Below are positions 588-48,030 of a stretch of 64,000 bases of DNA, piece by piece. How positions within the stretch are numbered: position 1 is the stretch's first letter; each line of letters opens with the position of its first letter. The translations under genes were made by a program, and so were the position numbers. Origin of the DNA: Candidatus Multivorans sp. (GTDB lineage: Bacteria > Acidobacteriota > Thermoanaerobaculia > Multivoradales > Multivoraceae); the NCBI GenBank assembly GCA_965224025.1, contig OZ245033.1, positions 4,983,676 through 5,047,675 on the forward strand. Direction: 5' to 3'. The notes below the pieces were generated by a model that worked only from the letters and a program-made list of their open reading frames with translations, was not told the origin of the DNA and made no database searches.

Positions 588-1595
588 ATGGATGACACTC
601 GGCTGATCCAACCTGGCTATCCCTGGCCCGGGGGTCTCTTGACCAACCACAAGGTCGACTCTCTCACCGACTCGATCTACGTCACCTTCGACGAGGAGGC
701 GTGGGGGCGTCTCCGTGCCGACACCCCGAATCCGCTGTCCGAGGGCGAACTGGAGCGGCTGCGCGGCATCAACGAGAACGTGTCGCTGGAGGAGGTGGCG
801 CAGATCTTTCTGCCGATGTCCCGGCTCCTGAATCTCTATGTCGGCGGCACCCAGGACCTCTACCGGGCCAGCACGACCTTCCTCGGCGGTCTGGCGCCCA
901 AGGTGCCGTACATCATCGGCATCGGCGGCAGCGTCGCGGTGGGCAAGAGCACCACCGGCCGCATCCTGCGCGAGCTGCTCGCGCGTTGGCCCAATCATCC
1001 CCAGGTCGACCTGGTGACCACCGACGGCTTCCTCCACCCCAACGCCGTCCTGGAGGAGCGGGGGCTCATGGAGCGCAAGGGCTTTCCCGAGAGCTTCGAC
1101 ATTCGCACCCTGGTCAACTTCGTCCTCCAGGTGAAGTCGGGCGAGCGGCGGGTCGAGCACCCGGTCTACTCGCACCACTCCTACGACATCCTGCCCGGCG
1201 CCACCGAGGTCGTCGATCAGCCGGACATCCTGATTCTGGAGGGCTTGAACGTGCTCCAGGCACGGTCGCAGGCGCCCAGGAGCAGCCGGCTGATGCTCTC
1301 CGACCTGTTCGACTTCTCGATCTACGTGGACGCCGAGACCGAGGTGGTCGAACGTTGGTACGTGGAGCGCTTCCTGACCTTCAGGGGTACCGCATTCAAG
1401 GACCCCGACGCCTACTTCCACCGCTACGCGAGCCTGAGCGAAAAGGACGCCATCGAGACGGCGCGCGGCATCTGGAAGGCGATCAACGAGCCGAACCTGA
1501 CCCAGAACATCCTGCCGACCCGCGAGCGGGCCGATCTGATCCTCGAGAAGGCGTCCGACCACGCGGTGCGTCGGGTGCGGCTGCGAAAACTGTAG
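588..1595 (+). CDS. coaA: Type I pantothenate kinase
   Basis: [10 protein letters not shown]-loop, [32 protein letters not shown]; true start may be slightly downstream. Confidence 0.95.
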
Positions 1596-1599
1596 CTGG

Positions 1600-3168
1600 C
1601 TACGGCGCCTGCCAGTTCGGGTTTCCCAAAGCGCCGGACTCGTCGAGGAGTTCGTCCAGGCGCCCGGACAGGCGGTCGAACAGCTCCTTGAGTGCCAGCA
1701 CCTCGGCTGCGTCTTCGCCGTCCTGGCTCCGCGCGTTCCTGGCCGCGACCGCCAGTCGCGTCTCGACGTTGCCGGCGCCGTGGCGGGTGATGAAGTCGCC
1801 AAGCAGGTTGTTTCTCTCCGCCGGGTCGGCCTCCAGGTCGTAGAGCTCGTAGCGGTCCCAAACGCCGTGGAATCGCATCAACTTGTAGCGGTCCGTGCGC
1901 ACACCCAGCACGGTCGGCGTCTGCGGGAAGGACCGTTCCCAGAAGTACTCGTAGAGGAAGGCGTCGCGCCACGGCGACGCATTGGTCCGGTCGCCTTCGA
2001 TCAGTCCCAGGAAGGAGCGCCCCTGGACGGTTGACGGGATCTCGAGTCCCGCGGCCTCCAGGAAGGTCGGCGCGAAGTCCAGGTTGACGATGAGTTCCGG
2101 GCGCCGCAAACCCCCGGCGCCGCCCTCGAACCCCGGCGCCAGGACGACCAGCGGTACGCGGATCGACGCCTCGTACATCGTCCGTTTGTCGATCAGGCCG
2201 TGCTCGCCGAACTGGAAGCCGTTGTCGGAGGTGAACACGAGCAGCGTCCGTTCCAGATGCCCCTGCTGTTCCAGGGCGCCTACGATCCGCCCGACACTGT
2301 CATCGACCGCGCGCATGGTCTCCGCGTAGTCCAGCGCGAACTGCTGGAAGTCGACCCGGTTGTCGTACAGGCCGTCGACGCCGTGCCAACTCCGACGCTG
2401 CGCCTCGACCCAGTTCGGCTTGCCCTCGTAGTTGTCATGCCGGTTCGCCATCGTCGGCGGAGGTGGATACCGCCGATCGGCGTAGCTCCCGAGGTGGCGT
2501 TCCGCGGGCCGGAAGGGCGAGTGAACGGCCTTGTGCGACACGTAGAGCAGGAAGGGCTCATCCGCCCCCTCGCGGGCGGCCAGGAAGTCCAGCGCGTAGT
2601 CGGTGATCAGGTCCGTGGTGTAGCCCTGGCGCGGCACCCGTTCGCCGTCGATGTTGAAGGTCTGGTTGTAGTAGAGGCCCTGACCCGGAAACGAGACCCA
2701 GCGGTCGAATCCCGGCCGCGGCTCGTCGGAGCTGCCTCCCATGTGCCACTTGCCGACGAAGGCGGTCCGGTAGCCGGCGCCCTGGAGTTCCTGCGGGAAG
2801 GTCGGCGTCGACGGATCGAGGCGAGTGCGGTTGTCGAGCACACCGTGCCGATGGGCGTACTGCCCGGTGAGGATCGACGCCCGGCTCGGCGAGCAGAGCG
2901 ACGTGGTCACGAAGGCGTTCTCGAACAGCACCCCGCGTTCGATCAGCCGATCGAGGTGCGGAGTCTCGAGGAACGGGTGTCCGAGCGCGGAAGCGGCGTC
3001 GAAGCGCTGGTCGTCGATCAGGATGAAGACGATGTTCGGGCGCTCGTCGGCGAGCCCCGGAGCGGCCGCCATCAGAGTCAACCCGCACGCCGCCAGCAGG
3101 CGCACGCCAAGGCGTCCGGTCCTTCGCCACCGTCCCGGTTCCCTGTTCGTCATCTCAGCTCCCGTCAT
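1600..3168 (-). CDS. Sulfatase (secreted)
   Basis: RPNIVFILIDD, CSPSR formylglycine motif, GKWH, TSDNG; start taken at ATG 3168 (3153 is an alternative). Confidence 0.9.
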   Translation of the reverse strand: MTGAEMTNREPGRWRRTGRLGVRLLAACGLTLMAAAPGLADERPNIVFILIDDQRFDAASALGHPFLETPHLDRLIERGVLFENAFVTTSLCSPSRASILTGQYAHRHGVLDNRTRLDPSTPTFPQELQGAGYRTAFVGKWHMGGSSDEPRPGFDRWVSFPGQGLYYNQTFNIDGERVPRQGYTTDLITDYALDFLAAREGADEPFLLYVSHKAVHSPFRPAERHLGSYADRRYPPPPTMANRHDNYEGKPNWVEAQRRSWHGVDGLYDNRVDFQQFALDYAETMRAVDDSVGRIVGALEQQGHLERTLLVFTSDNGFQFGEHGLIDKRTMYEASIRVPLVVLAPGFEGGAGGLRRPELIVNLDFAPTFLEAAGLEIPSTVQGRSFLGLIEGDRTNASPWRDAFLYEYFWERSFPQTPTVLGVRTDRYKLMRFHGVWDRYELYDLEADPAERNNLLGDFITRHGAGNVETRLAVAARNARSQDGEDAAEVLALKELFDRLSGRLDELLDESGALGNPNWQAP

Positions 3169-4094
3169 CTCAATTCTGCTGGGGGAAGTTCGCCCAGACC
3201 GACCGCCGCCAGTTCCCCGGGCTCGTAGTTCCAGCGCCGGTAGTTCCACATCCACTGCTCGGGCTGCGCCCGCACTCTCCGTTCGATCGCCCCGGCGATG
3301 CGCTGCGACAGCTCGACCGCGTCCCGCGTCCCGCCCGGAGAGCGGAGGATCTCACTCTCCAGCCGGTACGAGAAGGGGCCCTCGCGGACACAGAACGCCG
3401 CGACCAGGGGACAGTCGCGCTTGGCCGCCAGCGCCGCCGGGCCACCGACGAACTCCGTGCGGCGGCCCAGGAAAGAGACCTCCGGACCGCGCCGCTGGTC
3501 GGGCCGCTGATCGACCACCATGATCAGCGTCTCCTTCCGCTTGAGGCAGCTCAGCATGTCGCGCAGGAGAGAGGCACGCCCGCTCCAGATCACCCGAACC
3601 CCCGCCCGCGCCCGCATCCGCTCGACAAAGAGCGACGTTGCCGCGGAACGCGCGGGCTTGGCGACCGCGCACACCGGAGAGGCGGCCGTGCGTACGATGC
3701 TCTGAGCCAGCAGTTCCCAGGCGCCTAGGTGGGCCGTGACCAGCACCTGGCCGCGGCCGCAACCCTCGACCTCTTCCATCAACCGCTGCAGGTCGCCGAA
3801 ACCCTCCATTGCCCCTACGTCGAGCCGCTTCTGGTCGAAGCTGATCCGCACTGTCTCGAGCGCCGCCACGATCTGGTGCCGCACGCAGCGCCACTCCAGG
3901 TCGCGCGCCTCCGGCGACCCCGGAGGCAAGCCCACGACGACCGCCAGGTTCCGCCGCATCAACCGCACGTCGCGCGGCGTGACCCAGCGGCAAAGGGCCA
4001 GCAGCCCCGCCAGCGGGCCGAAGGCTGCAGCCGGCAGCAGGCGCAACAGCCACGAGGCGGCTAAGAGGAAGACTCCCATGGAGCGGTTGGACAT
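3165..4094 (-). CDS. Lipid A lauroyl/lysophospholipid acyltransferase family
   Basis: TAHLGAWE motif, DQ motif, C-terminal PEQWMWNYRRW. Confidence 0.85.
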   Translation of the reverse strand: MSNRSMGVFLLAASWLLRLLPAAAFGPLAGLLALCRWVTPRDVRLMRRNLAVVVGLPPGSPEARDLEWRCVRHQIVAALETVRISFDQKRLDVGAMEGFGDLQRLMEEVEGCGRGQVLVTAHLGAWELLAQSIVRTAASPVCAVAKPARSAATSLFVERMRARAGVRVIWSGRASLLRDMLSCLKRKETLIMVVDQRPDQRRGPEVSFLGRRTEFVGGPAALAAKRDCPLVAAFCVREGPFSYRLESEILRSPGGTRDAVELSQRIAGAIERRVRAQPEQWMWNYRRWNYEPGELAAVGLGELPPAELR

Positions 4095-39978: not shown

Positions 39979-41118
39979 GTGAACATGCAACTCGGCATTC
40001 TGGGCCTGCCCAAGGCGGGAAAGACGGCGCTGTTCAATGCGCTCACTGCATCCCGGCAGGCGACCGGCAGGTTCAGGGCGTCGAACACCACGAACGTGGG
40101 AGTAGCAGGGGTACAAGACGGGCGCCTGGAGAAGCTGCGGGATCTCTACCAACCGCGGCGCTACGTGCCGGCGCAGGTCCGATTCGTCGATGTTCCCGGC
40201 ATCGACCGGGGCCGGGGAGCGACCCTGGACCTGGCTGAACTGCGGATGATGGATGCCCTGGTCCACGTCGTGCGGGCCTTCGAGGACCCGGAACTCCTGC
40301 ACCCGTCGGGTCGAATCGACCCGCAGCGCGACATCGCCGCGATCGATCTGGAGCTGATCCTCGCGGACTACGAGCTGGTGGAGCGGCGGCTGGAGCGTCT
40401 CGATCAGGCGCGGAAGAGAGGCCTGACCGACCTGGAGAAGCGCGAGCGCGCGCTGCTGTCGGACCGCATCCTGCCGGCGCTCGAGGCGGAAACGTCGCTG
40501 CGAGGTCTGGACCTCGACGCGGAGGAGGAGAAACGGCTGCGCGGCTACGGTCTTCTGTCCCGAAAGCCGATGTTAGTGGTGCTGAACGTCGACGAGGACG
40601 TGGCGGGCGACCCCGCTGCGGCGGCCGGGGTCGAAGCGCCGCCGGGCACTGAACCCGGGTGGCGCGAACCCGCGCCGCCCGCGAACCGGTCCGAGCGCTC
40701 GTCATCGAGCGCTCGGATGGAACTCCTTGCCGTGAGCGCTCGGCTGGAAGAGGAGATCTCCCGCCTCGACCCGGCCGATCAGGGCGACTTCCTGGCTGAA
40801 GCGGGCCTCGACCAGCCGAGCGCGGTCCGGCTGGTGCAGGCGAGTTACGAGCTGCTGGGACGGATCTCTTTCTTCACCGTCGGCGACGACGAGGTCCGGG
40901 CATGGACCATTCGCCGGGGCAGCACGGCGGTGACCGCGGCGGGCGCCGTTCACTCCGACATCGAACGTGGCTTCATTCGCGCCGAGGTGACCGGTTGGCG
41001 GGAACTGATCGACGCCGGATCGCTGGCCGTCTGCCGCGAACGCGCGACCCTGCGCCTGGAGGGCAAGGAGTACCGCGTGCAGGACGGCGAGGTCGTCCAC
41101 TTCCGGTTCAACGTGTAG
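39979..41118 (+). CDS. ychF: Obg-like ATPase YchF
   Basis: GLPKAGKT, DVPG, FFTVG.DEVRAWT, HSDIERGFIRAE, EGKEY...HFRFNV. Confidence 0.95.
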   Translation: MNMQLGILGLPKAGKTALFNALTASRQATGRFRASNTTNVGVAGVQDGRLEKLRDLYQPRRYVPAQVRFVDVPGIDRGRGATLDLAELRMMDALVHVVRAFEDPELLHPSGRIDPQRDIAAIDLELILADYELVERRLERLDQARKRGLTDLEKRERALLSDRILPALEAETSLRGLDLDAEEEKRLRGYGLLSRKPMLVVLNVDEDVAGDPAAAAGVEAPPGTEPGWREPAPPANRSERSSSSARMELLAVSARLEEEISRLDPADQGDFLAEAGLDQPSAVRLVQASYELLGRISFFTVGDDEVRAWTIRRGSTAVTAAGAVHSDIERGFIRAEVTGWRELIDAGSLAVCRERATLRLEGKEYRVQDGEVVHFRFNV

Positions 41119-41146
41119 TCCGGCGCAAGCAGGTAACCTGCGCTGG

Positions 41147-41848
41147 ATGGACCGGAGGGGACCTTTCCGGCTCGACGATCGCCGCATCGCCTTTCCACCG
41201 GCGGGGCTGGCGGATCCGAGCGGCCTGCTCGCCGTGGGTGGAGGCCTCGAGCCGGAGCGGCTGCTCGCCGCCTACCGGTCCGGCATCTTCCCCTGGCCGC
41301 TCCTGGGTCCCGGCGGGCCCATGCTGTGGTTTTCGCCCGATCCGCGCCTCGTGCTCTATCCGGAGCGGTTCAGAACGTCGCGCAGTTTGCGGCGCGAACT
41401 CCGGCGCGACCCGTTCGAGGTCACGATCGACACGCGCTTCAGAGAGGTCATTGTGGCCTGTGCCGAGAACCCCCGTCCCGGACAGGCGGGCACCTGGATC
41501 ACGGATCCGCTGATCGATGCGTTCGAGCGCCTGCACCGGCTCGGGCACGCTCACTCGGTCGAGTGCCTGAAAGGCGGCGAGCTGGTGGGTGGCCTCTACG
41601 GGGTCTCGATCGGCGGCGCGTTCTTCGGCGAATCGATGTTCACCCGCCGCTCCAACTCGTCCAAGATCGCGCTGGTTCGTCTGGTGCGCTGCCTCGAACG
41701 GTGGGGCTACGCGTTCGTGGACTGCCAGCAGGTCACCGAGCACCTGCTCCGGTTCGGCGCCGAAGAGATCCCGCGCAGCCGCTTTCTGGACGAACTCGAA
41801 TCGGCTCGGGGGCTCCCCGGCCGTCCAGGTTCCTGGCGCTCACCGTAG
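41147..41848 (+). CDS. aat: Leucyl/phenylalanyl-tRNA-protein transferase
   Basis: GLLAVGG, AYRSGIFPW, AHSVE, GGLYG, FFGESMF. Confidence 0.95.
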   Translation: MDRRGPFRLDDRRIAFPPAGLADPSGLLAVGGGLEPERLLAAYRSGIFPWPLLGPGGPMLWFSPDPRLVLYPERFRTSRSLRRELRRDPFEVTIDTRFREVIVACAENPRPGQAGTWITDPLIDAFERLHRLGHAHSVECLKGGELVGGLYGVSIGGAFFGESMFTRRSNSSKIALVRLVRCLERWGYAFVDCQQVTEHLLRFGAEEIPRSRFLDELESARGLPGRPGSWRSP

Positions 41849-41929
41849 CTGCGGACCCTTCGGCAAGAACCTCGGACGGGAAGCTGTCAGGTGAGGGAAT
41901 CCGCCAGGAGCTGGTCGCCCGCGCGACGG

Positions 41930-42877
41930 TCAGAAGTACGGTTCCAGTTGCGTCAACCGTGTAAGGACCGCGCTGGCGATCTGTGAGCCCACCTCCGCCT
42001 CAAAGACGAGAATATCGCTCTCGGCGCCATCGTAGGACTCGCTCCAGAGTACGGTTCCGTCCTCGGCCAGGAGCAGGCGGGCCCAGACCCGGAGGCGATC
42101 CTGCTCCCGCTGAACCCGGCCGTCGAGCAGGTAGTCGGGTCGGCGCCCGTTCGCTCCGCCGCCGGCGCTTGCGAAGGGTCGGGCGTCGTGCGCGACGACC
42201 GCCAGCCGATCGAACGCCTGCCGGCCGAGCGACGTGATGAGTTCCTGGGTCAGCCCCTGGCGGAACGGCTCGGCGCCGGACCAACTCTCCACGGCCGAGA
42301 AGGGCAGGACCGCCAGCACCTGCCGTGATGGTTCGCTCGCGGCGGGTGGTCTGGATTCCAGCGCGCGCCAAAGGAAGACCGTGGCGACGATGCCGATGGC
42401 CGCCCCGATAGCGGCGAGCACGACGCCGGGTCTTGACCGCCAGCGGCGGGCGCCGCCCCTGGTGAGGATCGGCTCGTTGCCGTCGTTGACCTCGCTGACA
42501 GGCTTCAGAAAGCGGTACCCGAGGCGCGGCAGCGTTTCGATGTACGCGGGTGTGTCGGCGCTGTCGCCGAGTGCGACCCGGATCCGCTTGACGCAGGAAT
42601 TCATGCTCTGGTCGTACTCGACGTGGACCTCGTCGGGCCAGAGATGGCGGCGGACGGCCTCGCGCGAGACCACTGCGCCACGGTGCGCGATCAGTAACTC
42701 GAGGAGTCGGGCGGGCTGAGGCTGAAGCCGAACCGTGCGCCCGAGGCCGGAGAGTTCCAGGGTCTCGGGATCGAAGCGGAACTCGCCGAACTCAAGCCGG
42801 CGAGGGCGTGCAGGTGAGGCGCCGTCGCGTTTCGTGCCAAGGCGTTCCTCGTGCGACGAGCCGCTATCGCGCTGCAT
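41930..42877 (-). CDS. CadC-like winged-helix membrane regulator with TolB_N-like domain
   Basis: FGEFRFD, LGDSADTPAYIETLPRLGYRF, one TM helix, LAVLPF. Confidence 0.85.
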   Translation of the reverse strand: MQRDSGSSHEERLGTKRDGASPARPRRLEFGEFRFDPETLELSGLGRTVRLQPQPARLLELLIAHRGAVVSREAVRRHLWPDEVHVEYDQSMNSCVKRIRVALGDSADTPAYIETLPRLGYRFLKPVSEVNDGNEPILTRGGARRWRSRPGVVLAAIGAAIGIVATVFLWRALESRPPAASEPSRQVLAVLPFSAVESWSGAEPFRQGLTQELITSLGRQAFDRLAVVAHDARPFASAGGGANGRRPDYLLDGRVQREQDRLRVWARLLLAEDGTVLWSESYDGAESDILVFEAEVGSQIASAVLTRLTQLEPYF

Positions 42878-43343
42878 GAGGTTGCCCTTGGACTGCTACG
42901 AGTGAGCTGTTGTTTGGGGTTTCCGAGCCCCGAAAGGGAGGTTCCGAATTGGGGCTCCTGATTTTAGAAGACACAAAAGAAGACTACGCACGGAGCCTTC
43001 CGAGCGATGCGTGACAGTTGTGTAACCAGTTCGTGACCCCCGTGACCTGCGCCCTCGCTTGCTGGAGCAAGCGCGGATCCGTCGTGGATCAATGTGCGGA
43101 GCTTCTGGCGCCAGGGGAGCGACGGAGCGTCAGGTACCGATTTCGGCAACCTGTTGGCTCTGAGGGAACATCGGATGCGTCGCGTGTCCGAGTCCTGGCC
43201 GGCCCTGGCTTCTGGCGGTGTAACGCCTGGGCGGGCGCCGACATTCCGGCCCCGACGCCTCAGGGCGTGTGTCGCGGGACGTAAATCCCTGATACGGTTG
43301 CACTTACGGCGTTGGTGTGCTACCTTTTGCGGGCCAAGAAAGA

Positions 43344-44195
43344 GGATAGGGACTGCTCCGGGGCTCTCACCCGAACCGACCTGAAGTCTCTCAATCCCTC
43401 GCTCGCGTCTCCTCGGCCCTTCAGCTTGGCGGGCATCCGGTCGTGGAGCGCTTCGCGCGCCACCGATCCTCCGTTCAGGCCTGGGCGCCCTTGCCTTGCG
43501 GCTCCGGCGGTGGAACCTTGCGGCTCCTCCAGCCCCATCCGGTTTGCCGGGACTCCCCTTCGTTCGCCGGTTGCCTTCGGGCTTCCCGCTCCGGCTCGCG
43601 CCTTCGCGTTCTTCCCTCCGGCTCGGGTGGCCGAAAGGTCCGCACCGTCGTTCCGCCATGCCCGGCTCCTCGGCTTGCGCCTCCGAACCGGTAACTTTGC
43701 GGCCCGCCGTCGCGGGGACTCCCTGCCTTGTCTCCACCGACCCGGCGCCCCTGGGGGTACTTCGTCGCTCGACTGGTCGGGTCTTACGACGAAGTCCCCG
43801 GAGCGTCTGCCGATGAAGCGCTTCAGTTGCCGATCGGCCTTCCGTTGCTGCCGGGCAACTTCCGACCGCTCGTTTCCCTGAAGCCGCCTCCCGGGTTCAG
43901 GCGCCTTGAGGCTTGCGCCCCTCGGTACCGCTCCCGGGGAAGCCTTCGGCTACGGGAACCACTCGCCGGCTGGAGCTTCATGTCGTCAGGTTCGCCTCGG
44001 CTTGCGCCTCAACGTCCCCGGCTACAAATGGCTCCTGCCACCGAGCCCAGCTCTCAAGTCGTGACCTTCCGACCCTCACTCGTGAAGCGCGCCCACCACG
44101 CGAACGTGACTTTCGCCCTTCTCAAGCTCCGATCCGAGGGTCGCGACTCTTGGACCGGTGGATTGGGTTGCGATCCTTGGTCACAGTCCCTATCC
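43344..44195 (-). ncRNA. Candidate large structured ncRNA (~850 nt)
   Basis: 12-bp perfect terminal inverted repeat, multiple GNRA hairpins on the minus strand, upstream promoter, no credible ORF. Confidence 0.6.
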
Positions 44196-44201
44196 GCGAA
44201 C

Positions 44202-44231
44202 AACGTATAGGGCGCACAAAGGCCGTGTCAA
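44202..44231 (-). promoter_or_regulatory. Sigma70-like promoter
   Basis: TTGACA (44231-44226), 18 bp, TACGTT (44207-44202); predicted start near 44195. Confidence 0.65.
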
Positions 44232-44414
44232 GGGAAGGGCGGCGAACGCTCTCGGGCCGATGCCGGCGAACGAGTCTTAACTGTTTGAGCCTCAGCAACT
44301 TGACCCGTGCCACGTGAATTCGAGCGGACCGGTGGCGGCTGCGGATTTCCTGCGGAATCGGGTTGGCGGCGACGGGCGCCGGCTCGTTTGTTCCCGTTTG
44401 CGGGGCGGCGCGGA

Positions 44415-44490
44415 TGGTGCCCAGGGGCGGATTCGAACCACCGACACCCTGATTTTCAGTCAGGTGCTCTACCAACTGAGCTACCTGGGC
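44415..44490 (-). tRNA. tRNA-Phe(GAA)
   Basis: GCCCAGGTAGCTCAGTTGGTAGAGC...CTGAAAA...GGTTCGAATCC...GGGCACCA. Confidence 0.97.
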
Positions 44491-44593
44491 AAGTCGCGCC
44501 CGCCGGGCAGGACGGTAGAGCAGCGTGTTCTAACAGGGAGGCCCCGGCTCCGTCAACGAAGCGGCGGGCACGGGCCGGCTGGACTCCCCGGCC

Positions 44594-45427
44594 ATGCGCC
44601 AACCTGGAAGACTTGGCCAGCCTGTTCCTGCTCACCTTCTTGTTGTCCGGAGAGGCTTTCGCGCGGGATCACCGCCGCGGTTCCTGATCGCCCTCCTTGT
44701 CGGGTCGATCAGCCTGCTGACCGTAGGAATGGGGGCGGCCCAAGGGCAGCGCCTGCTGAGCCTGGGCTCTGAACCGGAGGCGCCTCCGGTCGCCGAGGCA
44801 GCGCGTTTCGACCCGGCCATGGTGCCCGTGACGGTGCGGGTCGACCTCGATCTGGTCCGTTCGGCGCCGTCTCGGCTCGAACTGCCGACGCCTGACGGGC
44901 GGATGCTGGTCGCGGAACGGAGCGTCTTCGAGGATCGCGGCGACGGCAACGTCATGTGGGCGGGCTCTCTTCCGGGAGCGGGCCACGAGAGCGTCGTCCT
45001 GACGGTGGAAGGCGGTAGCTTCGTAGGGCGCTTCGGCGAGCCGGGCGGCGCCAGGTTCCGGATCAGCGCCGATCCCGATGGTCGCGGCGGGATGGTCGAC
45101 ACCGCAGGTGAGCCGAGCGATGGGCCGGACACCTTCTGTCCGGTCGGTGAGCCGGAGAGCCTGTCGCGGCTCGGCCCGACAGAGCCCCGGCGTGTCGACC
45201 TGCGGCAGCGGGTGGCGCATCCGCAGAACCACGACCGGTTGGACATCCTGGTGCTGTACACAGCCGAGGCGACGATCGGTATGGCCGGCGAGCGGGAGAA
45301 CGAGCGAGCCCTTCGTCGCACCATGGGAATCGGGGTCCAGTACAGCGACGCTCCGCAGACGCCGGCGGAGGGCGCGCCCGCCGCGCCCACAAACGTCCGC
45401 GTCGACGTCGATACCGAGCCTTTCTGA
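44594..45427 (+). pseudogene. Probable truncated M12/reprolysin-like peptidase (propeptide only)
   Basis: Prodomain-like region, then LDILVLYTAEA, no HExxH; ends at an FN3-like start PAAPTNVRV. Confidence 0.45.
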
Positions 45428-45471
45428 TTCCCAGCGACCCGGCCGGGGCGTGCTACGCTGCGCCGACTCCG

Positions 45472-47043
45472 ATGCTCCCCGTTCGCCGCGCACTGGTTTC
45501 GGTCTTCGACAAGGCGGGCCTTGAGGAACTTGGTTCGGGACTGGCGAAGTTGGGTGTCGAGATCGTCTCGACGGGCGGCACGGCGCGGCAGCTCACGGAA
45601 CATGGTGTAGGCGTCACCGCGGTGTCCGATGTGACCGGACACCCCGAGATACTCCATGGGCGAGTCAAGAGTCTGCACCCCCGGATCTTCGGCGGCATCC
45701 TCGCCGACCGACGGCGGCAGGAACATCGGGCGGAGCTCGAGCGGCACGAGATCCCGCCGATCGATCTGGTGGCCGTGAACCTCTATGCCTTCGCCGCCGC
45801 GGCCGCGGACCCGGATGCGACCGTGGACGGCACGGTGGAGATGATCGATATCGGCGGCCCCAGCATGGTCCGTGCCGCGGCCAAGAACTTCGCCAACGTG
45901 GCGGTCGTCGTGGACCCGGCGGACTACCCGAGGATCCTCGAAGCCCTCCAGGCCGAGGGCGGCCTGTCCGAAGAGCTCCGGCGCGAACTGGCGCTCAAGG
46001 CGTTCCGGCACACGCAGAGCTACGACGCCGCGATCGCCGACTGGCTGGAAGACGGCGCGGCGGAGGCGGCCGATGACGAATCCCGTTCGTTGCCGGAGTC
46101 CGTCCGGCTGGAACTCGAGCAGGTCCTGGCGCCGCGCTACGGGGAGAACCCGCACCAGGGAGCGGCGGTTTACCGGGAAGTGGGCGGCGCCGGCGTTCTG
46201 GGCGGTCTTCGGCAGCTCCAGGGCCGGGAACTCTCCTGGAACAACATGCTCGATGCGGACGCCGCGCGGAAGCTGTCGGCCCTGTTCGGCGCTCCGGACG
46301 ACGATCCGGCGGTGGTCATCGTCAAACACAACAATCCGTGCGGCGTCGGCAGGGGCGCGTCGCTCGTGGAGGCCTACGAGCGGGCCCTGGCCTGCGACCC
46401 GGTTTCCGCGTTCGGCTCGATCATCGCCGTCAACCGGCCCTTCACGGGGGCCCTGGCCGAGGCGCTGGCGAAGCTCTTCGTCGAGGTCATTGTGGCGCCC
46501 TCCTTCGAGCCGGCCGCGGTCGAGCGGCTGGGCCGGAAGAAGAACCTCCGCCTGCTCGAATGCCCGCCCTTCTCTGCTGGGGACGGTGCCTACGAACTGC
46601 GAGCAGTCGACGGCGGTTTCATCGCCCAGCGCCTCGACAGCGCTCCGGAAGACCCGCGGGAGTGGACCTGTCCCACCCGGGCGCGGCCCGACGAGGCGCA
46701 ACTGCGGGCGCTCGACTTCGCCTGGCGGGTGTGCCGGGCGACGAAGTCGAACGCGATCGTGGTCACCAACGAACACCAGACGGTCGGCATCGGCGCTGGC
46801 CAGATGAGTCGGGTCGACTCCTGCCGCATCGCGCTCGACAAGGCCCAACTCGCCGTTGCCGGCACGGTGGCCGCCTCGGACGCCTTCTTCCCCTTCCGCG
46901 ACGGCGTCGACACCCTGGCCGAGGCCGGAGTGACCGCGATCGTCCAGCCCGGCGGCTCCGTTCGCGACGACGAGGTGGTCGCGGCCGCCGACGAGCACGG
47001 CGTCGCCATGCTCCTGACCGGGCGCCGCCACTTCAAGCATTGA
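45472..47043 (+). CDS. purH: Bifunctional AICAR transformylase/IMP cyclohydrolase
   Basis: ALVSVFDK, STGGT, IDIGGP, RYGENPHQ, ASDAFFPF, QPGGS, RHFKH. Confidence 0.98.
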   Translation: MLPVRRALVSVFDKAGLEELGSGLAKLGVEIVSTGGTARQLTEHGVGVTAVSDVTGHPEILHGRVKSLHPRIFGGILADRRRQEHRAELERHEIPPIDLVAVNLYAFAAAAADPDATVDGTVEMIDIGGPSMVRAAAKNFANVAVVVDPADYPRILEALQAEGGLSEELRRELALKAFRHTQSYDAAIADWLEDGAAEAADDESRSLPESVRLELEQVLAPRYGENPHQGAAVYREVGGAGVLGGLRQLQGRELSWNNMLDADAARKLSALFGAPDDDPAVVIVKHNNPCGVGRGASLVEAYERALACDPVSAFGSIIAVNRPFTGALAEALAKLFVEVIVAPSFEPAAVERLGRKKNLRLLECPPFSAGDGAYELRAVDGGFIAQRLDSAPEDPREWTCPTRARPDEAQLRALDFAWRVCRATKSNAIVVTNEHQTVGIGAGQMSRVDSCRIALDKAQLAVAGTVAASDAFFPFRDGVDTLAEAGVTAIVQPGGSVRDDEVVAAADEHGVAMLLTGRRHFKH

Positions 47044-47099
47044 TGGGTCGCCCGCGTACGGTGGTCCCGTGCTGGAACGCAGTGCCCCCGGCGCTTGGG

Positions 47100-47780
47100 A
47101 TGATGCGGCCCGCGCGTCCCGTCCTTACGGCGGCGACGGTTCCCTTGCCGGTGGCGGCGGCGGTTCCCTTGCTGGTGGCGGTCTGCCTGCTTGCCGCCCT
47201 CCCGGCATTTGCCGACGATCCGTGGCGCGTTCTCGATGACTTCCGGCGCTCGCTCGAGGCACAGGCGCCGCTCACGGCGGGCTTCGTGCAGACGCACGTA
47301 CCCTACGGATTCGATCCGGAGGACGGCGATACGGAGCGCGGCAACCTCGCCGTCGCCCTGCCCGGTTGCCTGCGCTGGGACTACTCGCCGCCGTTCGAGA
47401 CGGCCTTCCTGCTGTGCGACCGGACGGTGCATCACTGGAACCCCGCCGAGTCGGTCGGTCAACGCTATGACCTGTCGGCGCAACCGGCCCCGGGGCTCGA
47501 CTTCTTCCTGCTCACCACCGACGATCTCCGGGACCGGTACGAGGCGGAGCTGGACCCGGTACCCGGCGACCGCGTGCGCCTGGTTCTGCGCCCGCTCGAA
47601 CCGAGCGAAGACGTCGCCCTGGTGCAGATTGTGATCGACCGCGAGGAGCAGCGCCTGCGTGAGTTGACCTACTACGACGCCCAGCGCAACGAGAACCGCT
47701 TCATCGTCGGCGACTACCGCAGCGGCGCCGCGCCCGGCCGCTTCAAACCGCCGCCCGGAATCGAGTGGGAGGAACCCTAG
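47100..47780 (+). CDS. LolA-like outer-membrane lipoprotein carrier
   Basis: Signal peptide, TAGFVQ, PGCLRWDY, C-terminal FKPPPG; start uncertain. Confidence 0.7.
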   Translation: MMRPARPVLTAATVPLPVAAAVPLLVAVCLLAALPAFADDPWRVLDDFRRSLEAQAPLTAGFVQTHVPYGFDPEDGDTERGNLAVALPGCLRWDYSPPFETAFLLCDRTVHHWNPAESVGQRYDLSAQPAPGLDFFLLTTDDLRDRYEAELDPVPGDRVRLVLRPLEPSEDVALVQIVIDREEQRLRELTYYDAQRNENRFIVGDYRSGAAPGRFKPPPGIEWEEP

Positions 47781-47791
47781 CTCTCAGCTAG

Positions 47792-47848
47792 GAGTCGCGG
47801 CGTCCGCGCCGCGCTGACGCACAGGAAACAGGGCTTGTTCCATGCAAG
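47792..47848 (+). mobile_element. 57-bp mini-element made of IS110-like ends, copy A
   Basis: CTAG|GAGT...CAGGAAACAGG...TTGTTCCATGCAAG, similar to IS ends 4111-4154 and 5752-5765. Confidence 0.7.
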
Positions 47849-47966
47849 TATCCACAGCGGTGGTCCGTTGCGCTGCCGCATAGGGAACATGTGCGTTCGG
47901 GTGTCGGGCCGCAGCGATTTTCGCCCACTTGCGGCAGGACATTTCATCCCTGCTGCTCCACTCTCG

Positions 47967-48030
47967 CTGGGTGCGCGGGCCTTCTGGCCCGCTGCCGCCG
48001 CGGGCGGCCAGGAGAACGCGCCGGCCGGAG
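47967..48030 (+). repeat. REP-like palindromic repeat (uninterrupted relative of the phage target)
   Basis: CTGGGTGCGCGGGCCTTCTGGCCCGCTGCCGCCGCGGGCGGCCAGG; related copies near 7578, 26426, 26557, 54183 and 55645. Confidence 0.75.

Follow-up and report, generated by a model that had tools for sequence, protein, structure and literature searches.

A probable stand-alone gene for a large, structured non-coding RNA downstream of tRNA-Phe in Candidatus Multivorans (Acidobacteriota)

The DNA analysed here, which we call the window, is a 64,000-nt stretch of the genome of Candidatus Multivorans sp. (contig OZ245033.1, positions 4,983,676 to 5,047,675 of the forward strand). Within it, about 1.5 kb without a credible gene separates a tRNA-Phe gene from the gene of a winged-helix regulator, in a neighbourhood whose local GC content is about 0.60–0.74 in 300-nt windows over positions 40000–48000. 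In this interval, at 43336–44197 on the minus strand, lies what is very probably the stand-alone gene of an abundant and highly structured non-coding RNA (ncRNA) of about 860 nt, belonging to a new family that, within the genomes searched, is confined to its genus. The block is conserved in 30 homologues, has a strand-specific fold, matches no Rfam family and contains no conserved open reading frame (ORF). Its upstream neighbour on the same strand is the tRNA-Phe (GAA) gene at 44415–44490, called by both ARAGORN and Rfam, and its downstream neighbour, at 41930–42877 and also on the minus strand, encodes a 315-aa regulator whose N-terminal part is a winged-helix domain of the OmpR/CadC type (Pfam Trans_reg_C, E 1.5e-15). 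An earlier reading of the letters alone, made without database searches (the sequence-only reading), had proposed a large structured minus-strand RNA of about 850 nt downstream of tRNA-Phe; the position is borne out, and the length is right for the window species (about 860 nt), with relatives ranging from 621 to 870 nt.

The gene is bounded by conserved signals, which we describe from an alignment of 30 homologous sequences that underlies all counts out of 30 given below. Conservation begins abruptly at a -35-like box, TTGACA, at 44226–44231 (TTGACA in 29/30 homologues, TTGACT in one), and the sequence immediately upstream of that box is not conserved. After an 18-nt spacer comes a -10-like box, TACGTT, at 44202–44207; across the homologues a TAnnTT box is found 17–18 nt past the -35-like box in all 30, as TACGTT in most, TAACTT once and TACCTT once. 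The minus-strand promoter TTGACA-18-TACGTT of the sequence-only reading is thus present at 44231–44202 and conserved. The RNA would then start with GGAUAGGGACUGUGACCAAG, its 5’ end falling near 44195–44197, 5–7 nt past the box. Further upstream, at 44339–44356 on the minus strand, is a direct repeat, TCCGCAG-N4-TCCGCAG, whose two 7-bp units are one helical turn apart. In the form TCCGCAG-N4-TCCGCAR it keeps a fixed distance of 157–159 nt from the RNA start in 30/30 homologues, and its exact copy here is the only one in the genome. The 7+4+7 layout recalls the binding sites of OmpR/PhoB-type winged-helix proteins, and the repeat is possibly an activator site, for example for the neighbouring winged-helix regulator, a link that we infer from layout and proximity. 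A regulon search gave 16 one-mismatch matches to the repeat as against 11 in a reversed-pattern control, from which no co-regulated genes can be inferred.

The two ends of the predicted RNA are joined by a terminal helix, P1, formed by a 5’ arm at 44183–44195 (GGAUAGGGACUGU) and a 3’ arm at 43344–43356, both on the minus strand. It comprises 13 bp, and 100% of its cells are paired in the 30 sequences. Its core is a perfect 12-nt inverted repeat (GGATAGGGACTG at 43344–43355 and CAGTCCCTATCC at 44184–44195), which the sequence-only reading had recognised with exact coordinates as closing the whole region. By itself this repeat is not beyond chance, as a perfect inverted repeat of at least 12 nt occurred somewhere in 5 of 60 dinucleotide shuffles of 43300–44260; it gains its weight because it clamps both ends of the RNA and is conserved as a 13-bp helix in 30/30 homologues. 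At the 3’ end, the RNA closes with ...GUCCCUAUCC and then a U-run in 30/30. The U-rich tail, UCUUUCUU, at 43336–43343 (minus strand), directly follows P1, with the U-run after CCUC in all 30 homologues; it looks like a terminator tail or a protective 3’-end tail, and we place the putative 3’ end of the RNA there. Just past the U-run, at 43298–43322, the motif TAGCAC-N10-TAAGTGCAA is present on the minus strand in 29/30 homologues and has no other copy in the genome with up to 2 mismatches. Read on the plus strand the same segment is TTGCAC-N14-TGC-TAnnTT, a promoter-like arrangement whose -10 box is of the extended type and which faces into the RNA gene.

These boundaries bear on one rival, namely that the transcript is a cis-regulatory element or long 5’ leader belonging to the gene of the winged-helix regulator downstream. 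The regulator gene has the same orientation as the RNA and is adjacent to it in all loci examined, as a leader would have it. Against this stand the roughly 460 nt between the U-run (43336–43343) and the regulator gene, the termination of the RNA in a terminal helix plus U-run, and its own conserved promoter-like boxes. Moreover, genomes that lack the RNA keep the regulator and its own upstream region directly after tRNA-Phe, and we consider a leader function very improbable.

That the region encodes no protein, as the sequence-only reading had held in finding no credible ORF, is supported by comparison among species: no frame is conserved, insertions and deletions are mostly not multiples of three, and there is no periodicity. 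The longest open stretches range widely across species and frames, from 64 to 288 codons. Of 486 pairwise indel events, just 62 have a length divisible by 3, the other 424 do not, and 313 are of 1 nt. Variable columns are spread over the codon phases as 139/114/147 of 288 each, with no 3-base periodicity, and none of the three longest ORFs of the window in this region matches Pfam. A protein-coding gene or pseudogene is ruled out by the want of a conserved open frame and of third-position variation.

Comparison with catalogued RNAs used Rfam 15 (4227 models), which includes GOLLD, ROOL, OLE, HEARO, raiA, group I and II introns, RNase P, tmRNA and 6S. At Rfam gathering thresholds the whole window yielded four tRNAs only, and the loci of four relatives likewise yielded tRNA only. 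At E<=10, region 42800–44700 gave only tRNA-Phe and weak matches that fall far short of their cut-offs, such as ar45 (16.5 bits, cut-off 40) and sR30 (12.9 bits, cut-off 38). The impression that the element resembles neither rRNA, tmRNA, RNase P nor a group II intron agrees with the lack of any such match at E<=10, and its novelty is not removed by the covariance models. A divergent housekeeping RNA is ruled out by the copies of these RNAs found elsewhere above the Rfam cut-offs: contig C1 carries full-length RNase P RNA (224.8 bits) and full-length 6S RNA (72.6 bits), as well as tmRNA. The latter is present as two full-length genes, at C1:1078052-1078399 and C1:1081483-1081830 (134.2 and 132.3 bits), about 3.4 kb apart on the same strand; duplication of the tmRNA gene is unusual. 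Our literature searches turned up no description of the RNA; the supplementary motif lists of comparative-genomics surveys (for example PMC5737381) could hold one. The suggestion of a possibly new class stands as far as the Rfam 15 and literature searches show.

The fold is predicted to be strong and specific to one strand. The minus strand has a minimum free energy of -437.5 kcal/mol, compared with -392.3 +/- 7.6 for shuffled sequences (z -5.94, with 0/20 shuffles as good), and the plus strand reaches a z of -1.71. For a 622-nt relative (L021) the corresponding values are -6.92 sense and -1.27 antisense. RNAalifold applied to the 30 sequences gave a 164-pair core, in which 99.2% of 4913 cells hold standard pairs at a mean column identity of 74%. 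Within that core, 9 pairs show changes on both sides, against 4.2 +/- 1.3 in column shuffles (0/500 reach 9) and 3–5 when the partners are slid. A larger structure of 267 pairs, derived from 11 long forms, is 93.8% paired, and 25 of its pairs show double changes, compared with 13.0 +/- 2.1 for shuffles (0/500) and 8–13 when slid. Both structures come from the same alignment of close kin, which favours them, so that these figures support a conserved fold rather than each helix. G-U pairs make up 11.7% of the cells, and 29 of the 267 pairs are mostly G-U, which on the opposite strand would be A-C mismatches; together with the z-scores, this means that the conserved fold fits the minus strand only. 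A large structured minus-strand ncRNA is accordingly borne out by strand-specific z-scores, compensatory changes and sense-only G-U pairs, and among the collected homologues double changes are more frequent than in shuffled or slid controls.

Several parts of this fold stand out. P1 is extended by a second long-range helix, P2, and together they make 26 pairs, all but one of them invariant or nearly so. Another long-range helix, proposed by the sequence-only reading between 43355–43363 and 43796–43804, did not hold: the segments are complementary in the window, and this complementarity is lost in more distant species, where both keep local hairpins instead (columns 877–895 and 434–480). A central conserved domain (columns 344–480; 43753–43884, minus strand) has 90% mean column identity, and its helix 356–365/392–400 contains four pairs with compensatory changes. 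Here also lies a 17-nt loop, AAGACCCGACCAGUCGA, at 43769–43785 (minus strand), invariant save for one loop position and one sequence. The GUC-GUAA-GAC hairpin noted earlier near 43781 lies inside this almost invariant loop, with a longer 8-bp stem, and is perhaps no tetraloop hairpin. At 43849–43854 on the same strand, the hairpin loop CCGGCA, containing the palindrome CCGG, is unpaired, at least 90% conserved and identical in 29/30 homologues, and may serve as a tertiary or intermolecular contact. The invariant unpaired stretches are AUCCA, GAAAGUCA, CCGGCA and CCGACCA; a search for pseudoknots and loop-loop pairs among the conserved unpaired runs returned trivial purine/U-run matches only.

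The minus strand is rich in GNRA hairpins: it has 12 GNRA loops closed by at least three pairs, compared with one on the plus strand and with 2.0 +/- 1.3 (maximum 6 of 500) in mononucleotide shuffles. Every GCAA hairpin listed by the sequence-only reading is present, including GGC-GCAA-GCC (GGCGCAAGCC), which occurs in three exact copies plus close variants, and the purine richness that it reported is confirmed by the base counts (G 331, A 183, C 248, U 102 of 864). Among 34 distinct full-length sequences of 621–870 nt there are length classes near 622, 700, 787 and 865 nt, with the window RNA in the longest, and what separates the classes is whether entire hairpin-bearing domains are present. 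Optional domain 1 (columns 521–693; 43552–43716, minus strand), bounded by the direct repeat GGGAGUCCC, holds two GA-flanked GGC-GCRA-GCC hairpins; it is complete in 18/30 sequences, partial in L020 and absent from the 621–624 nt forms and from L012. Optional domain 2 (columns 700–782; 43466–43545, minus strand) has two GCAA hairpins and is found in only 12/30 sequences, namely the long forms and L012.

Such repetition raises the main rival to an architectural role, a sponge RNA that titrates a protein in the manner of CsrB/RsmZ or 6S: a single RNA-binding protein would occupy the repeated hairpins, and species would adjust the capacity of the RNA by gaining or losing hairpin-bearing domains. 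One hairpin module does recur, as three exact copies and variants, and each optional domain adds two such hairpins, so that near-identical modules vary in number between species as in CsrB/RsmZ. GGAG occurs 17 times versus 10.2 +/- 2.7 in shuffles and GGA 35 times versus 26.9 +/- 4.1, and the high depth of contigs in RNA libraries (see below) would suit a titrating RNA. On the other hand, the GGA enrichment is modest, and most of the motifs fall in stems or internal loops instead of hairpin loops; the loops here are GNRA tetraloops rather than GGA-bearing ones, and no candidate protein was identified. Known sponge RNAs are simple strings of hairpins, and the RNA here is two to three times longer than those of the CsrB/RsmZ type, with long-range helices and invariant loops that suggest one conserved global fold. 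We regard a sponge as unlikely.

The RNA is single-copy in its 5.14-Mb genome. BLAST shows that 31 of 36 same-genus genomes carry it, at 69–91% identity; over 24 genomes from 21 other genera of the order, BLAST returned one 32-nt match (E 3.8e-4), which we take as chance. For more sensitive searches we used a covariance model (R1) of the central domain, with 137 positions, 39 pairs and an effective sequence number of 0.79; built from close relatives, it may miss distant kin. It finds the RNA in 16/19 same-genus genomes, in 0/131 genomes of an order-wide sample outside the genus (0/2 from other genera of the family, 0/129 from the other 11 families) and in 0/150 other genomes sampled from the phylum. 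An nhmmer profile of the full alignment gave no match past tRNA-Phe in either of two sister genera, nor in three RNA-less genomes of the same genus. An exact scan for the central loop motif, covering a single genome for each prokaryote species, yielded 33 records, 31 of which carry the RNA by R1 (30 complete and one cut by a contig end), and these carriers are labelled Candidatus Multivorans, Thermoanaerobaculia, ‘Holophagales’ or Acidobacteria metagenome-assembled genomes (MAGs); several of them match same-genus genomes letter for letter. The other two, from Actinobacteria, match the motif alone and not the rest of the RNA, and were set aside as chance. One of these two, a Microbacterium sp. 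MAG (L052), shows short matches to the loop part of R1 every ~342 nt at about 645–4090, probably a tandem repeat in a coding region, which accounts for the hits outside Acidobacteria. The 5’ motif was found in only three metagenome contigs. As far as searched, the family is confined to the genus Candidatus Multivorans (Acidobacteriota, Thermoanaerobaculia).

Losses within the genus tell something of its history. In three complete RNA-less genomes of the genus, the regulator gene comes about 400 nt after tRNA-Phe; the whole module of about 1.15 kb is gone, comprising the TCCGCAG repeat, the promoter, the RNA and the downstream motif. A tree of the regulator protein was built from 30 of 35 tblastn rows, five short rows of less than 290 aa (L013, L022, L028, L042, L045) having been dropped; it represents one gene with a midpoint root, on which the direction of events is read from nesting only. 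On it the three RNA-less genomes are scattered, one of them nested with 97/91 support beside an RNA-bearing species in the long-form clade, and at least two losses are needed; the size classes have also changed several times. The scattered, nested positions imply that the RNA was already present in the ancestor of the genus and can be dispensed with. Since the whole module has been deleted in some species, the RNA is accessory and not essential.

Two further alternatives meet these data. The first is a mobile-element remnant, similar to a miniature inverted-repeat transposable element with 12-bp terminal inverted repeats, lodged beside a tRNA gene, or else a decayed protein gene. Terminal inverted repeats, the adjacent tRNA and the presence/absence polymorphism of a ~1.15-kb module are what a mobile element would leave behind. 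There is one copy in the genome, however, and the site is the same in 29/30 loci; evolution has preserved the structure, with its strand-specific G-U pairs; no viral contig matches; and the absences nested within RNA-bearing lineages point to deletions, not insertions. A decayed gene is countered by the lack of any conserved ORF or frame, and we find this pair of explanations hardly credible. The second is a new large ribozyme or other catalytic RNA. Its size, ornate conserved fold and several invariant unpaired stretches are those of large ribozymes, but it matches no Rfam ribozyme family, has no evident substrate or processing site, and occurs in a single genus with repeated losses, an unusual pattern for a catalytic core function. 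A catalytic role seems to us very unlikely.

Transcripts of the family appear to be plentiful. We used RNA libraries that contain 7–10% of the sequence words sampled for the search, meaning conserved parts from relatives; from four runs, contigs were placed at 80% likeness (X5 and X7–X24 were not used). Contigs from all four runs fall on 43394–44184 with 80–99% identity, many of them at 95–99%. Depths of single contigs reach 6,240 (X1, 114 nt over the central domain), 16,522 (X3), and 24,962 and 23,053 (X6), the last of these inside optional domain 1. Contigs matching the neighbouring tRNA have depths of 3.8–33 and may come from other organisms. One run, X2, is labelled sponge metagenome. Bins 43000–43356 and 44224–44376 have no contigs and were not used to place the RNA ends, since the flanks are poorly conserved in relatives and flank transcripts could not be placed at 80% likeness. 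Evidence that the family is an abundant RNA is good but indirect.

A number of points weigh against reading the locus as a gene for an abundant, structured RNA of a new family. The libraries speak less directly than their depths suggest: the contigs come mostly from relatives and give no strand, start, end or level, DNA is possible in RNA libraries, and the tables of X1 and X2 are nearly identical and possibly duplicates, which leaves at most three independent studies. The gene signals are imperfect as well, as a strict sigma-70 scan did not list the promoter site, TACGTT agreeing with TATAAT at 3/6 positions, and terminator prediction found no canonical local hairpin at the U-run. An antisense transcript could arise from the conserved promoter-like site on the plus strand at 43298–43322. 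As for the fold, besides the shared origin of structures and alignment, the homologues all come from one genus and most pairs are invariant or variable on one side, which limits covariation; in the 5’ domain (columns 40–150) two alternative pairings differ between models and the data do not choose between them. The RNA is missing from 5 of the 36 same-genus genomes and is therefore dispensable, in keeping with the repeated losses on the regulator tree. The central motif has 0 matches to viral contigs, giving no phage link, and no partner protein is encoded beside the RNA, its flanks being tRNA-Phe and the winged-helix regulator.

Among known RNAs, OLE, ROOL and GOLLD come closest in kind, being large, ornate, abundant and non-essential. 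It shares the size class of these RNAs at about 860 nt, as the sequence-only reading had supposed, and is a member of none of them. OLE has co-located genes for dedicated partner proteins (OapA and others). Like OLE, the present RNA is an ncRNA of at least ~600 nt, encoded in the chromosome by a single-copy gene of its own; its fold is elaborate and conserved, and it is apparently very abundant, narrow in taxonomic range and non-essential. It differs in occurring in Acidobacteriota rather than Firmicutes, in having no Rfam OLE match at E<=10, and in having no adjacent dedicated partner gene, the regulator persisting where the RNA is deleted. With GOLLD and ROOL it has in common the size class, tRNA adjacency and optional regions, whereas its fixed chromosomal site, single tRNA-Phe, housekeeping neighbours and lack of viral-contig matches set it apart, as does the absence of an Rfam match to either family. 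OLE is described as forming a dimer in cryo-electron microscopy (cryo-EM) and as poorly understood in function (PMC12286853, PMC3413148). PMC12286853 describes GOLLD and ROOL as RNAs of 580 to >800 nt with variable or optional regions and of unknown function, lying beside tRNA genes (GOLLD env-38 downstream of Met-tRNA) and encoded mainly in phages and prophages near tRNA islands; ROOL as equalling 16S rRNA in abundance in one strain while being non-essential; and OLE, ROOL and GOLLD as forming RNA-only assemblies (dimers, nanocages) by cryo-EM (PMC12286853). With RNase P RNA, 6S RNA and tmRNA the present RNA shares a paired terminal helix, a promoter of its own (here predicted), likely high abundance and GNRA tetraloops on a multi-branch fold, and it differs from them in lacking a model match and in being genus-restricted and dispensable.

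The RNA may act as a folded architectural molecule and not through base-pairing to mRNAs. Its GCAA/GAAA tetraloop hairpins, several of them copies of the GA-flanked GGC-GCAA-GCC module, would mediate RNA-RNA contacts, tertiary and perhaps also intermolecular ones, or alternatively would bind a partner; the contacts would build a compact particle, possibly oligomeric, of the OLE/ROOL/GOLLD kind. Drawn from the anatomy of the RNA only, this mechanism is tentative, a plausible outcome that we stop short of calling probable. A bolder version is a chromosomal, non-phage, self-assembling ornate RNA that multimerises through GNRA tetraloops and palindromic loops, or else a new large ribozyme, and this we consider doubtful. 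If it were true, an RNA-only particle would be a major RNA species in these bacteria, with the optional domains decorating the particle, and a self-assembling RNA or ribozyme of this sort would represent a novel RNA architecture in an uncultured lineage of Acidobacteriota.

The surroundings of the gene add some observations of their own. The 3’ end of tRNA-Phe lies 183–251 nt upstream of the RNA in 29/30 homologous loci, as located with a 25-nt 3’-end motif. At the remaining locus, L018 (genome G001), both this motif and an Rfam tRNA match are absent from the 1.5-kb flank, which means that tRNA adjacency is not obligatory. NCBIfam matches to the 315-aa regulator span its DNA-binding domain only. 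Upstream of the regulator gene, at about 43000–43060 on the minus strand, GTCACG is repeated (GGTCACGGGGGTCACG...TGTCACG), and an RNA-less relative (L091) has a similar AAGTCACG repeat; the repeat may serve the regulator as an operator for its own gene. Two copies of GUCACG are found within the 5’ domain of the RNA, too. Further neighbours are the housekeeping genes YchF, aat and purH. An 802-aa ORF at 44632–47040 (minus strand) has no family match and overlaps the plus-strand purH at 45472–47043 (AICARFT_IMPCHas, E 1.3e-113); it is a spurious ORF of GC-rich DNA.

To our knowledge, it is rare for a bacterial ncRNA longer than some 500 nt to have an elaborate, conserved fold, and besides rRNA, RNase P and self-splicing introns only a handful of classes are known (OLE, GOLLD, ROOL and a few others). 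Each of them has proved surprising in structure, with RNA-only dimers and nanocages revealed by cryo-EM (PMC12286853). The locus described here very probably adds a further class to them. The narrow distribution limits its general importance unless the fold or the function proves new. At the same time, its natural size series (about 622, 700, 787 and 865 nt) marks core versus optional domains, the gene boundaries are clear, the deletions in sister species are natural knock-outs, and the high depth of RNA-library contigs points to likely abundance. In metatranscriptomes, where it might otherwise be dismissed as unannotated noise, the RNA would serve as a marker for an uncultured genus of Acidobacteriota.

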